The translations under genes and the position numbers were made by a program. Below, one piece after another: positions 45,783 through 54,321 of a DNA stretch of 64,000 bases. The DNA is from a bacterium (lineage in GTDB: Bacteria; UBA10199; 2-02-FULL-44-16; JAAZCA01). The stretch lies in NCBI GenBank assembly GCA_963674695.2, contig CAXXGI010000001.1, positions 928,001 through 992,000 on the forward strand, in the 5' to 3' direction. Every line of letters starts with the position of its first letter. Positions within the stretch are counted from its first letter, which is position 1. The notes beneath the pieces are model-generated. The model was not told where the DNA came from, did not search any database, and saw nothing but the letters and a program-made list of their open reading frames with translations.

Positions 45783-47264
45783 TTACCACGCCGAGAGCGA
45801 GAGGTAGGCGACGAGGTTCTGCGGGAGGATGCCGAAGAGGATGACAACCATCGCGGCGATGGCCAGGACCGCCACGAGCGGCGCGGGGATGGCCCGCACC
45901 GTTGCATCTTCATCGAAGGCGCCCATCGATGCGTGCGGCTCGCAGAAGACCATCGTCCATACGGGCTTGAGGAAATAAGCGATCGACAGGACCGATCCGA
46001 ATGCGCCGACGAGCACGAGTCCCACATCGCCGCCCCCGAGTGCGGTGAGAAAAAGATCATAGCGCGCCACGAAGCCGACGGTCGGCGGCAGGCCTGCAAG
46101 GGCCAAGAGGATGAGGGAGAAGGTTGCGGCCAATACGGGCCGACGAGAAGCCAGGCCTGCGAGCTGGGCACTGTCCACGCTGCCCGCACCCCCGATGGCA
46201 CTCACCGCGGCAAAGGCCGCCGCCATGAGCACGACCGTCACGAGCAGGAAGAGGATGAGCGCACGCGAAACACCCGAAGGATCGGCCGCGACCGACGGCA
46301 ACACGATCAGCGCCAGCCCCACCTGCGCAATCGCCGCGAAACCGAGCATGCGTTTGAGATTCGTCTGCGCCAACGCGCCGAGGTTGCCCACGACGATCGA
46401 GGCGACGGCGAGCGCTGTGAGCAGACCCCGCCAGAGCGGGCCGATGGCCGCAACCGCGAGCGCCACCCGCATGAAGGCGATGAGCCCCGCCGCCATCGCA
46501 CCGGTGGTGAGGATTACCGCTGCCGCCGGCGGCGCGCCCTCGATCGCATCGGGCATCCAGGCATGAAAGGCCGCGATCGCAATCCGGAGGGCGAAGGCGA
46601 CCGTCACCAATCCCACGCCGACCAGGACGAGCGAACGCATCGGAGAGGCCATGCATTCTGGAATGCGCTCGGCGATCGCCCCCAACTCCGTCGCGCCGGT
46701 GACGCCGAAGAGACAGGCCGCACCCATCGCCATGAAGGCGGTCGCCAGGAGGGAGGGGATGAAGAACTTCACCGCCGCCTCGTGCGCGCGCCCGCCGGCC
46801 CTTCCGCCGACGATCAACGCAACCGCGCCCGCCGCAATGATTTCGAAGGCGATGAGGATCACCACGAGATCGGCGGCGGCAACGAGGAGCGCCATGCCGA
46901 AGGCGATCACGCCCAACATGGCCGCGGGGACACTTCGTTCAACGCCCTCGCCGCGATCGGAGCAAGAGACGAGCAGCGCAAAGGCCGTCGCGATGATCGC
47001 GATCTGCCAGCCGACGATCGTGACGCGATCGATGAGGAACATTCCTTGTGATGCGCCGGAAGCGGATGCCCACATCTGCCAGGAGAGGAAAAAGCTGACA
47101 CCGAGACCTGCACTGAGCACGGCAATGTGTGCACGCCGGGAGGGGCGAACGAGTTCGATTCCACCGACGACGAGTGCGGTCACCGCCAAGACGATGAGCG
47201 GGAGTGCGCTTCGCACGAATGCGACCCCCCCCTGCCCACCCCACTGTACCACCGCTTCGAACAT
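45783..47264 (-). CDS. nuoN: NuoN-like antiporter subunit (divergent)
   Basis: EAAVKFFI, FHAWMPDAIEGAP, QTNLKRMLG, LAGLPPTVGF. Confidence 0.85.
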   Translation of the reverse strand: MFEAVVQWGGQGGVAFVRSALPLIVLAVTALVVGGIELVRPSRRAHIAVLSAGLGVSFFLSWQMWASASGASQGMFLIDRVTIVGWQIAIIATAFALLVSCSDRGEGVERSVPAAMLGVIAFGMALLVAAADLVVILIAFEIIAAGAVALIVGGRAGGRAHEAAVKFFIPSLLATAFMAMGAACLFGVTGATELGAIAERIPECMASPMRSLVLVGVGLVTVAFALRIAIAAFHAWMPDAIEGAPPAAAVILTTGAMAAGLIAFMRVALAVAAIGPLWRGLLTALAVASIVVGNLGALAQTNLKRMLGFAAIAQVGLALIVLPSVAADPSGVSRALILFLLVTVVLMAAAFAAVSAIGGAGSVDSAQLAGLASRRPVLAATFSLILLALAGLPPTVGFVARYDLFLTALGGGDVGLVLVGAFGSVLSIAYFLKPVWTMVFCEPHASMGAFDEDATVRAIPAPLVAVLAIAAMVVILFGILPQNLVAYLSLSAW

Positions 47265-47273
47265 CGAACCTCC

Positions 47274-47363
47274 GTAACTCGTGACTCGTAACTCGTAACT
47301 CGTGACTCGTAACTCGTAACTCGCGAGCTGTTCACGGTTCACGGTTCACGGTTCACGGTTCAC
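47274..47363. repeat. Heptamer arrays at the nuoM/nuoN junction
   Basis: On the coding strand, (GTGAACC)n supplying the nuoM stop, then about 7 GAGTTAC/GAGTCAC units up to the nuoN SD. Confidence 0.85.
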
Positions 47364-53041: not shown

Positions 53042-53093
53042 GGTTAGGGTGGGGTAGATCGGGGACTCATGATCTACCTCCCCCCATCCCCTC

Positions 53094-53939
53094 TTACTGA
53101 ATCCCCCACTTGTCGAGCGTGCCGGGACTGGAATCGTTGACGATGCTATAGGTGACGCCATCTTCCTGCTGGGCCTGTAGCTTCAGAAACTCCTGCGCCG
53201 CCGCCCGGCCCTCGAAGCTCTTCTTGTCCTTCATCAGATCGCGATAGGTCCGCAGCGCTTCCTGGCGATAGGGCTCCGCGCGGATGAGCAGCTCGTCGGG
53301 GGCAATCGCGCTGTTGAACAGCACCCAGCTCCACTTGCGGTGCACAAACCAGACGTCTTCGTTCACGCGCGCCCAGAGGAGTCTGCCCCGACGGTTCCAC
53401 TCCCCCCTCGGTCGCCGTTTGAGAAAGGCCTTGATGCGCGGCAGCACCTTGTCGGGATGTCCGCGCACCTCGCGCAGCAGGGTGTAGAAATCGGCCTCGG
53501 CCGCCCAGGAGCTCTTCGGGAAATCGGAGAGGAGGCGACGATACTGCACACCTGTGTAGGGGATGTAGGTGATGGCGTGCTCATAGGCGAACGATCCCGA
53601 CCCAAAGCGCGCGTTCAACCCCTGCGCCTCGGCCTGCATGCAGGCGGGCGTGCGCGGCGCGCCCTTGGCCCAATAGCACTTCTTCTCCGCGCGTTCGGTG
53701 AGGCCATCCTGCAGCCGATCGAGCAGGCGCCCACAGAGTGCGAGCGCCTCGGGCGTACGCTTTTTCTCCTTCGGGTGCGCCTGCGCCCAGCGACAGATGA
53801 GCTCGGCGGCTTGCTCCGGCTGCGTCTTCATCAGGGCCTTGCCCTGATCCAGCTCGTCGGCCCCCGCCGGCGCCACCCAGAGAAAGGTGCCCACGAGGAG
53901 GCAACACACGATGCGAGCGATATCAGTGATCCGTTTCAT
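53094..53939 (-). CDS. Secreted helical TPR-like protein
   Basis: Signal peptide ending APAGA-DE; YRRLLSDFPKSSWAAEA and FLKRRPRGEW resemble BamD/CpoB-type TPR units; start overlaps the upstream nuoA-like ORF. Confidence 0.75.
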   Translation of the reverse strand: MKRITDIARIVCCLLVGTFLWVAPAGADELDQGKALMKTQPEQAAELICRWAQAHPKEKKRTPEALALCGRLLDRLQDGLTERAEKKCYWAKGAPRTPACMQAEAQGLNARFGSGSFAYEHAITYIPYTGVQYRRLLSDFPKSSWAAEADFYTLLREVRGHPDKVLPRIKAFLKRRPRGEWNRRGRLLWARVNEDVWFVHRKWSWVLFNSAIAPDELLIRAEPYRQEALRTYRDLMKDKKSFEGRAAAQEFLKLQAQQEDGVTYSIVNDSSPGTLDKWGIQ

Positions 53940-54321
53940 CGATTCCCCCTTCTTCAAAGAGATCATCATCCGTGCGGACCGGACGGGCACCGGCCAGGGC
54001 CCGAGGGACACAGCCGATGGCGACGAGCAGCAGCGCGACAAGGCCCGCGATGAGGACGACGTGGAGCAGGGCCGCTATCGCGTTCTCCCCCTCGGACTGC
54101 AGGATGAGCCCCGAGGCCGCTGGAATGAGCGCCAGGGCGATGAGGCCCAGAAACGCCAAACCCGCAGCGCCCAGCACCGCCGCATCTGTGCGCGGCGAGG
54201 GCAGCAGACCCGGAGCGGGCGACGACGACGCCCGCCGACGGCGCATCCGCACAACAAACACCAGGGCGATGAGCGCCGAAATGACCATCCACACGAAATA
54301 CGCCAGACCGTTGGATTCCAT
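53923..54321 (-). CDS. Three-TM protein, probable highly divergent NuoA
   Basis: TM1-long loop-TM2-TM3 topology, size and first position in the operon fit NuoA; the (Y/F)E(C/S)G and FDVE motifs are absent. Confidence 0.5.
   Translation of the reverse strand: MESNGLAYFVWMVISALIALVFVVRMRRRRASSSPAPGLLPSPRTDAAVLGAAGLAFLGLIALALIPAASGLILQSEGENAIAALLHVVLIAGLVALLLVAIGCVPRALAGARPVRTDDDLFEEGGIDETDH

Follow-up and report, generated by a model that had tools for sequence, protein, structure and literature searches.

The bacterial genome assembly GCA_963674695.2 carries, on contig CAXXGI010000001.1, an operon that encodes the membrane arm of respiratory complex I without the peripheral arm (the "head") that would feed it electrons. 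The operon occupies positions 45783-54321 of the window, by which we mean the whole 64,000-nucleotide stretch of DNA analyzed here (positions 928,001 to 992,000 of the contig). Its products H', J', K, L, M and N are homologs of NuoH and of NuoJ to NuoN, and they are accompanied by a small protein, A', and by a secreted protein, Sec. The reading that we favor, at a probability of about 0.5, is that this arm is uncoupled from redox chemistry, no longer pumps and is held under selection, with a probable role in scaffolding Sec in the periplasm. Comparison with related genomes makes it highly probable that the arm is headless, has a dead pump and is yet maintained by selection; that it serves as a scaffold for Sec is a tentative proposal, to which we would give somewhat less than an even chance.

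The operon and the genome-wide search for its head

All eight open reading frames (ORFs) are co-oriented on the minus strand, running from 54321 down to 45783, and none contains an internal stop (Table 1). A preliminary description of this DNA, made from the letters alone, had reported intact, co-oriented membrane-arm ORFs in nuo order, an ATGA overlap between J and K and a gap of 1 nt between K and L; direct reading of the frames and junctions bears this out. Longer spacers lie between Sec and H' (217 nt), L and M (288 nt), and M and N (88 nt). K matches PF00420 (59.9 bits) and, above its cut-off, NF004320 (64.8 bits). L, M and N each match PF00361 at 117-150 bits, and their best NCBIfam models are TIGR01974 (NuoL, 310 bits), TIGR01972 (NuoM, 365 bits) and TIGR01770 (NuoN, 237 bits); among these three proteins only M passes the NCBIfam cut-off. 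The match of H' to PF00146 is weak (31.2 bits) and restricted to the C-terminal third, and that of J' to the NuoJ model NF005163 is very weak (19.5 bits), J' aligning end to end with NuoJ of relatives. Family models together with such alignments identify NuoJ, K, L, M and N homologs in canonical order.

The first ORF, A', had been called NuoA-like. Its place, its size and its hydrophobic segments agree with that description, but homology to NuoA is not detectable: A' has no Pfam or NCBIfam match, comparison with NuoA of five relatives by HHalign gives a probability of about 1%, and A' does not resemble the ORFs that lie upstream of Sec in two related genomes, G002 and G008. A' is thus NuoA-like by position and size only, and occupies the place that nuoA and nuoB have in relatives. 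Its GC content at the three codon positions (GC1/2/3) is 0.74/0.48/0.75.

The genome (3.03 Mb in 3 contigs; completeness 100, contamination 0.85) was searched as a whole for the missing subunits, and control genomes were detected in each search for a subunit of the Q-module. Matches to PF00346 (NuoD) and PF00329 (NuoC) number zero in the whole genome. The only genome-wide match to PF00146 is H', i.e. there is no second NuoH, and the only matches to PF00361 are the L, M and N described here. PF01058, the NuoB family, has one match, a hydrogenase small subunit on another contig, whose gene stands between genes for Fe-S/FAD subunits and a NiFe large-subunit-like ORF; from a reading of these ORFs the cluster appears to be a soluble group-3-type NiFe-hydrogenase. 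For NuoI, the best score genome-wide is 47.8 bits against a cut-off of 113, and the unlinked nuoI genes of four relatives with canonical operons score 110-123 bits. When A, B, C, D, E, F, G, H and J of a relative served as tblastn queries, only two NuoE/F/G-like loci were added; their Pfam architecture, which includes extra ferredoxin domains and a pyridine-nucleotide oxidoreductase, is of the soluble HydB/C type. The best NuoI score comes from within one of these NuoF-like proteins.

The preliminary description had listed nuoB, C, D, E, F, G and I as absent. For B, C, D and I this holds for the whole genome, and the alternative that it had named, a set of these genes elsewhere docking on this NuoH, does not apply, as none exist; for E, F and G it needs amending, since genes resembling them are present elsewhere in soluble form. 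These soluble modules lie in the window's genome (G000) at C1:481.5-484.7 kb and 799.5-804.3 kb (loci L068 and L069), one of them consisting of a fused E-F protein of 815 aa adjoining a 710-aa 2Fe-2S/pyridine-nucleotide oxidoreductase, and they are likely to be flavin-based electron-bifurcating or NAD(P)-linked enzymes. The NiFe-hydrogenase-like cluster comprises four genes (C3:1031.6-1035.1 kb, locus L002), and genes for Rnf subunits are found 14 kb from it (C3:1047.4-1048.8 kb). Rnf is probably the ion-motive machine of this organism. Neither cytochrome bd nor a heme-copper oxidase was found in the genome, in which Rnf is present. Loss of the quinone-reducing head fits an anaerobic, fermentative life, but leaves the retention of the arm unexplained. 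Terminal oxidases were rejected as a correlate of head loss: COX1 was found in 0/13 genomes of the family and cytochrome bd only in one (G003), with no separation between the two states.

The surface to which a head would bind is degenerate as well. In comparison with NuoH of relatives, H' has lost all of the motifs ERK..GPN, AD..KL, SYE and AE..R.PFDL.E.E..EYS, retaining little beyond QP and LFLGGW..P, and the loops that form the quinone cavity and the E-channel of NuoH are not found in it. Its AlphaFold2 model is of low confidence (predicted local distance difference test, pLDDT, 63.8), and all 50 matches listed by Foldseek for this model are NuoH, ND1 or NdhA chains; the input alignment included canonical NuoH. 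With the Q- and N-modules missing and the docking and quinone loops of H' gone, the complex cannot take electrons, which agrees with its earlier characterization as redox-uncoupled.

Proton path residues and selection on the arm

We tracked 19 canonical path residues in L, M and N, all of which are kept in eight canonical relatives; positions in L are numbered by alignment to E. coli NuoL (3rko_L). In the window, L carries the replacements E144M, K229R, H254Q, H338V, K342L, K399L and D400S and keeps H334 alone. M carries E144Q, K234P, H322Q and H348Q and keeps K265 and E407, and N carries K217R, K247M, K395R and a change of the His in transmembrane helix 10 to Gln, with E133 kept. Both membrane Glu residues of K are replaced by Gln, although both are kept in seven canonical relatives. 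Retention in the window is thus 4/19 (H334 of L, K265 and E407 of M, E133 of N), and 0/2 in NuoK. The counts in other members of the order with reduced operons include 3/19 in G002, 4/19 in G014, 2/14 in G008, 8/19 in G007 and 7/19 in G012. In G007 and G012 all six tracked residues of NuoM are lost, L and N keep about half of theirs, and the loops of NuoH are degenerate, so that this too is an unusual form of complex I.

Arginine cannot shuttle protons as lysine does. Mutating K229 of L, K234 of M or K217 of N in E. coli leads to loss of function, and with Ala or Gln in place of E144 in L or M all activity disappears (PMC3046159). PMC9271201 names K399L, K395N, E407M, K265M, H322M, D400L, E36K and E72K as path residues (the last letter being the subunit). 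Given that the Lys/Glu/His relay of L, M, N and K has been replaced, pumping or exchange by the mechanism of complex I or Mrp is most likely impossible.

The loss of the relay stands apart from the general divergence of these proteins. At positions invariant in the eight canonical relatives, the window keeps 326/525 (62%), and the retention of path residues is lower than that of other invariant positions (Fisher p = 3.5e-4). The losses also have a regional pattern: the ends of L (the first 100 and last 210 residues) keep 61/77 invariant positions and its core 91/184 (p = 8e-6). In NuoL the lateral clamp helix and its anchor belong to the last third, and both half-channels are formed by the core. 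Of the 17 replacements in L, M, N and K, ten are of the types K to R, E to Q or H to Q, which preserve shape or charge and not proton transfer. One of them, K395 to R in N, recurs in G007/G012, G009, G002 and the window, lineages that are set apart in the tree of L. By these comparisons the pump looks dead and its residues selectively erased.

The preliminary description had regarded the operon as repurposed rather than decaying. A search for sequencing runs listed three public DNA runs of one study and no RNA run. Contigs from these runs are identical to the window within genes, the only two listed variant positions being intergenic, and amino-acid identities between genera are 20-55%, so that synonymous sites are saturated. 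Indirect evidence speaks for repurposing, namely the retention of 62% of the invariant positions and the open frames of headless Sec and L-M-N genes in three other genera, which are described below.

Sec, the ancestral operon and headless relatives

A search for homologous proteins with H' returned only itself, a scan for related loci with it found none, and a comparison with 1.84 billion representatives gave six weak matches, the best non-self one at 41.7 bits and 29% identity. Since H' is too weak as a query, orthologous loci were sought with L. Sixteen homologs share 39-46% identity with it, and beyond these the scores fall off to 285 bits or less. Their loci lie in metagenome-assembled genomes labelled Deltaproteobacteria, Bdellovibrio, Pseudobdellovibrionaceae, Myxococcales or Pseudomonadota, which are the same genomes as the window's relatives at the family and order level. 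L is nearest to L proteins of its own family and order (38-46% identity).

Canonical relatives share the map nuoA-nuoB-Sec-nuoC(D)-E-F-G-H-J-K-L-M-N, followed by post245, a gene whose product has no Pfam match. In these operons (loci L019 and L059-L064) nuoI is missing between nuoH and nuoJ and is unlinked instead, and NuoH is about 421 aa long, roughly 70-90 residues of which form an additional segment. All arm subunits of the window have diverged further from those of the canonical genome G006 than have the subunits of its canonical kin: identity is 42% against 61-66% for L, 44% against 54-60% for M, 38% against 44-51% for N, 39% against 54-61% for K, 29% against 48-53% for H and about 27% against 45-51% for J. 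The product of post245, by comparison, is 73% identical to its counterpart in G006, within the range of 67-74% seen among canonical relatives. Across the family this protein of about 245 aa shows 63-75% identity and is conserved above any Nuo subunit. In several relatives it is adjacent to nuoN; in the window the two are separated by two plus-strand genes (41010-43751 and 43930-45717), whose products are a subtilase-domain protein of 913 aa and a protein of 595 aa without an assigned family.

The GC content of the operon is 62-68%, compared with 58.6% for the genome and 64.7% for the adjacent brnQ, and its GC content at third codon positions (GC3) is 0.78-0.83, matching native neighbor genes. 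A horizontal origin from a high-GC donor was considered and rejected: brnQ is equally GC-rich, GC3 is alike, and synteny and trees indicate vertical descent. Vertical origin follows from the position of L nearest to its own family and order, the synteny of Sec and post245 and the native-like GC3. The operon of the window is thus the ancestral one minus nuoB and nuoC-G, with nuoI also lost, fast-evolving and vertically inherited.

The gene between nuoB and nuoC in relatives is Sec. The preliminary description had called the window's copy a TPR gene; what it missed is the conserved membership of this gene in the nuo operon of the lineage. Sec was found in 24/41 relatives, every time beside nuo genes, and in several of them with 4-nt overlaps on both sides. 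On account of these overlaps with nuoB and nuoC it looks like a stoichiometric operon member, and in this lineage the complete enzyme probably had Sec as an accessory subunit. Its sequence starts with a signal-peptide-like N-terminal segment, and neither the window's Sec nor that of G006 matches any Pfam family. A protein search gave 94 homologs at E <= 0.001 including the query (41-64% identical), all named "hypothetical protein" apart from one "transposase", and one of them carries TPR Pfam families. The alignment contains two invariant Cys and several invariant Trp, Arg and Asn residues. The AlphaFold2 model is confident and all-alpha (pLDDT 89.9); fold matches are weak, with BamD and other TPR proteins best (E 1.8e-3, TM-score 0.27-0.33), and an atlas search likewise pointed, as a lead only, to clusters of YfiO and TPR proteins (0.86-0.88).

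Sec is 55-58% identical to its counterparts in G006, G009, G002 and G008 (55% to G006), its branch in the window is not long (0.39), and in headless genomes it is conserved above any Nuo subunit. It is also the sole gene that always stands directly upstream of the surviving membrane genes after loss of the head.

Headless operons are not confined to the window. Among 18 genomes of the order with at least 85% completeness, a full-score NuoD is present in 11, and a complex I NuoD is absent from four: the window's genome, G002, G009 and G014. G002 has the order A'?-Sec-H'-J'-K'-L'-M'-N' with an H' of 437 aa, and its L, M and N are just 20-24% identical to anything. G009 has Sec-J-K-L-M-N-post245, with H missing at the locus, and G014, a member of a different family, has Sec-L-M-N only, H again being missing at the locus. 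The Sec and L-M-N core is thus found headless in three other genera, an answer to the search of relatives for the same synteny that the preliminary description had proposed. Two less reduced states exist as well: G008 has Sec-D'-H'-J-K-L-M-N with a degenerate NuoD (124 bits) and no B or C, and G007 and G012, of a sister genus, have reduced, divergent B-C-D-H-J-K-L-M-N operons (loci L049 and L050) without E, F, G or Sec. G009 has, in addition, a separate cluster of NuoB-, NuoD-, NuoI-, NuoH- and PF00361-like genes (contig C28, 150.9-158.0 kb), which looks like a group-4 membrane-bound hydrogenase-type complex; nothing alike is present in the window's genome.

About 2,230 codons stand open in the window, with a natural logarithm of the probability of open frames, ln P(open), of -56. 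The other headless genomes are AT-richer (GC content 36.5% in G002, 49% in G009 and 40.5% in G014), and their frames are open over 420-660 codons with ln P(open) of -97 to -166, which cannot be due to chance.

In a tree of Sec (16 rows, not including G004, G011, G016, G018, G020 and G021) headless genomes do not group together: G009 joins the canonical G006 (support 86/91) and G014 joins a canonical family, f4 (94/89), so that the tree requires no fewer than 3 changes of state. A tree of L, made by a quick search with 20 rows and flagged for long branches and skewed composition, places G009 as sister to G006 (99) and the window as sister to G008 (97); its join of G002 and G014 may be a long-branch artefact. 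The sister relationship of the window and G008 implies that their common ancestor still had the degenerate NuoD. We read the trees as at least two losses of the head and probably more, although the independence of the losses is not proven. End branches of L are 0.85 in G009 and 4.5-6.4 in G014 and G002.

The spacers of the operon are rich in repeats. The Sec-H' spacer, which takes the place of nuoC-G in relatives, holds a REP-like, partly palindromic repeat. Parts of this repeat have about 100-230 copies across the genome, and it is a point where short-read contigs accumulate and end. The L-M spacer, the M-N spacer and the stretch after N contain tandem arrays of heptamers with the units CGTAACT, CGTGACT and GTTCACG. 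The pattern has 70 matches genome-wide over both strands; self-overlapping arrays match both strands, which leaves about 60 distinct arrays, some longer than 90 nt. The arrays are a short, tandemly repeated intergenic element. Upstream of A' the TTGTCA-N17-TACACT site that had been taken for a promoter is present, but it is the only one in 9.2 kb, where shuffled sequence would yield 1.4; the count is not above chance and gives no evidence for a promoter. No Rfam families were found in 40000-57000.

Divergent from the operon, a 783-aa plus-strand ORF (54483-56834) fuses the branched-chain amino-acid transporter BrnQ (PF05525, 401 bits) to a domain of the acetate/butyrate kinase family (PF00871). 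It is followed on the same strand by a 1433-aa ORF (56843-61144) that contains two stretches of the BcrAD/BadFG ATPase type, DUF2229 and a weak match to HGD-D, and looks like a fused activator of the 2-hydroxyacyl-CoA-dehydratase type and would fit amino-acid fermentation.

Table 1. Features of the membrane-arm operon and its surroundings, in positions of the window.
Feature	Positions	Strand	Description
TTGTCA-N17-TACACT	54359..54387	minus	sigma-70-like site upstream of A'
A' (A-like ORF)	53923..54321	minus	132 aa, three hydrophobic segments
Sec	53094..53939	minus	281-aa secreted/periplasmic all-alpha TPR-like protein; lineage-specific nuo operon member
REP-like spacer repeat	52877..53093		Sec-H' spacer, place of nuoC-G in relatives
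H'	51944..52876	minus	310 aa, degenerate NuoH homolog
J'	51436..51933	minus	165 aa, degenerate NuoJ homolog
K	51134..51439	minus	NuoK homolog, 101 aa
L	49144..51132	minus	NuoL homolog, 662 aa
heptamer tandem arrays	48862..48936		L-M spacer
M	47353..48855	minus	NuoM homolog, 500 aa from ATG 48855; frame open from 48981
heptamer tandem arrays	47273..47364		M-N spacer
N	45783..47264	minus	NuoN homolog, 493 aa from ATG 47264; frame open from 47342
heptamer tandem arrays	45749-45780		stretch after N
post245	40116..40886	minus	gene following nuoN in relatives; synteny marker, Pfam match none

Explanations, known systems and significance

The scenario that we propose starts with the loss of nuoB, nuoC-G and nuoI from an inherited nuo operon, which left A'-Sec-H'-J'-K-L-M-N. 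Selection would then keep the products as folded membrane proteins that assemble into an arm; this arm would act as a non-catalytic membrane scaffold or anchor, and its likeliest client or binding partner would be Sec. A scaffold role is suggested by three features in combination: the head and the surface that binds it are gone, the proton relay is gone, and the parts that hold the arm together are the best conserved. Of the roles that the preliminary description had listed as candidates, a scaffold fits best, a passive transporter is disfavored, and for a signal transducer there is no evidence. A wider form of the proposal, in which the survivors in general are pseudo-pumps, i.e. folded, assembled and non-catalytic membrane scaffolds that face the periplasm, is possible though less likely than not.

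Several observations weigh against the scaffold reading. G009 keeps 12/19 path residues, and its arm may therefore still move ions; the headless forms need not all share one function. In G007 and G012, whose operons keep B-C-D-H-J-K-L-M-N, no Sec was found, so the arm and Sec are separable. The approximately unbiased (AU) test leaves a single clade of the four headless genomes unrejected (p = 0.097). The end branch of L is 1.14 in the window against 0.05-0.31 in canonical genomes, which would also fit relaxed constraint. Finally, the residue numbers used above for M and N follow the literature and not a printed alignment to the E. coli proteins.

The G009 count bears most directly on an alternative that we consider improbable, namely that the arm is still an ion transporter, an Mrp-like cation/proton antiporter or a leak that uses a non-canonical path and needs no redox input. 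L, M and N do belong to the antiporter superfamily of Mrp and complex I (PF00361), the genome has no other PF00361 protein and hence no Mrp, and the window retains E133 next to K217R in N and K265 and E407 in M; for G009 this explanation is at its strongest. In the window it has to contend with the replacement of 15/19 path residues and of both Glu of NuoK, with the inability of arginine to act as a proton shuttle, with the inactivating effect of E144Q in L or M of E. coli (PMC3046159), and with the lack of MrpB-, MrpE-, MrpF- or MrpG-type proteins among the eight products according to Pfam, the best NCBIfam models being those of Nuo and not Mrp. An unlikely explanation of another kind is that the operon is a functionless relic that decays slowly, its frames being open by chance, by high GC content or by polar constraints within the operon. 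Rates are indeed much raised, functional residues are lost, H' and J' are barely recognizable, three spacers contain repeats, and high GC content reduces stops, long antisense ORFs being common in this region. The length of open frame in the window, the still more improbable open frames of G002, G014 and G009 despite identities of 20-55%, the regional retention of 62% of invariant positions and the native-like GC content at codon positions all argue against decay.

About as unlikely is an arm that remains an energy converter by docking a non-homologous input module encoded elsewhere. The complex I superfamily has swapped heads repeatedly, among hydrogenases, Fpo and NDH-1, and the genome does contain soluble NuoE/F-type modules, a group-3-like hydrogenase and Rnf. 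However, every head known to us attaches through NuoB/D/C/I homologs on NuoH; such homologs are absent here, the interface loops of H' are gone, and the loci of G009 and G014 lack H altogether. No candidate gene is linked to the operon, and a pump without its relay could not convert energy. An assembly artefact, with the head genes collapsed at the Sec-H' repeat or left unassembled, is very improbable. For the Sec-H' junction the assembly of the window is indeed the sole source: among the short-read contigs listed, none runs across the repeat at 52915-53040 free of mismatches, and the two that overlap it carry 4-5 differences. Yet the genome, rated 100% complete in 3 contigs, has no NuoB, C, D or I, the nuoI that is unlinked in relatives being absent as well; the remaining subunits bear the signature of head loss, and three other genomes are alike without that repeat.

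How the operon relates to described systems depends on which features are compared. It resembles the membrane arm (P-module) of complex I in its H, J, K, L, M and N homologs with their canonical order and tight junctions, in the long C-terminal extension of L and in its descent from a full nuo operon of the lineage. It differs in that the genome lacks NuoB, C, D and I as well as E, F and G of the complex I type, in the loss of the NuoH motifs, the path residues and the NuoK Glu pair, in an A' for which homology to NuoA is undetectable, and in the inclusion of the secreted TPR-like protein. By these measures the operon is a complex I membrane arm by descent that has none of the Q-module, the NuoH site or the proton relay. 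Enzymes already called "headless", such as Fpo without FpoF and the 11-subunit NDH-1, retain B, C, D, I and H together with a functional site for quinone or ferredoxin, and they still pump. The window's operon is likewise a derivative of complex I that lost its input subunits, and G007 and G012 carry reduced sets of the same kind; unlike those enzymes, it has lost the whole Q-module. What the 11-subunit and "headless" Fpo-type enzymes lack of complex I is the N-module only (PMC3144371).

Like Mrp, the operon combines NuoL/M/N-like and NuoK-like subunits in a membrane complex that does not depend on redox chemistry, but it has H and J homologs and has lost the relay. Mrp complexes consist of MrpA (with an MrpB-like part), B, C, D, E, F and G, have neither NuoH nor NuoJ, and keep the Lys/Glu relay. 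Nuo models score well above Mrp models for L (310 vs 136 bits), M (365 vs at most 127) and N (237 vs at most 117), and the eight ORFs have no Pfam match above cut-off beyond PF00146, PF00420 and PF00361, no genome-wide search aimed at MrpE, MrpF and MrpG having been made. The earlier conclusion that this gene set fits neither the 11-subunit enzymes nor Mrp therefore stands, since the Q-module is absent, H and J are present, and Nuo models are best. A precedent for PF00361 proteins in a new role with an accessory soluble partner is given by DabAB/MpsAB and by NDH-1MS (NdhD3/F3-CupA). Their partners are cytoplasmic and carbonic-anhydrase-like, and they need the relay residues; here the candidate partner, Sec, is periplasmic and TPR-like. 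DabA (PF10070) was rejected as a partner, with 0 matches in the genome. Assembly intermediates of the complex I membrane arm (7zkp) are also arm subcomplexes without a peripheral arm, but those are transient, pump-competent and awaiting their head, for which the window's genome has no genes.

Complex I and its relatives are commonly portrayed as a pump with a head and, to our knowledge, every complex I derivative keeps the junction between NuoB/C/D/I and NuoH. In the literature searched, no title or abstract concerned a membrane-arm-only nuo operon; PMC12361115 counts 2,171 species with an "incomplete" complex I, which it does not dissect, and its supplements may already include such genomes.

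The operons of this order form a series from the full enzyme, through one without E, F and G and one with a degenerate NuoD only, to the headless arm. The series amounts to a natural K to R and E to Q mutagenesis that could serve to separate the needs of folding and assembly from those of proton transfer, and it presents Sec as a candidate new periplasmic accessory subunit of bacterial complex I. It also advises caution in annotation: the names "NADH-quinone oxidoreductase subunit L", "M" and "N" are here no sign of respiration. The finding, based so far on comparative genomics, is of clear interest to bioenergetics as a possible case of a respiratory enzyme that survives as a pseudo-enzyme. 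On the wider reading, which would account both for the repeated discarding of the peripheral arm while Sec-L-M-N survives and for the change of the survivors into pseudo-pumps, the arm would be the first respiratory complex known to have been converted to a non-bioenergetic structural machine.

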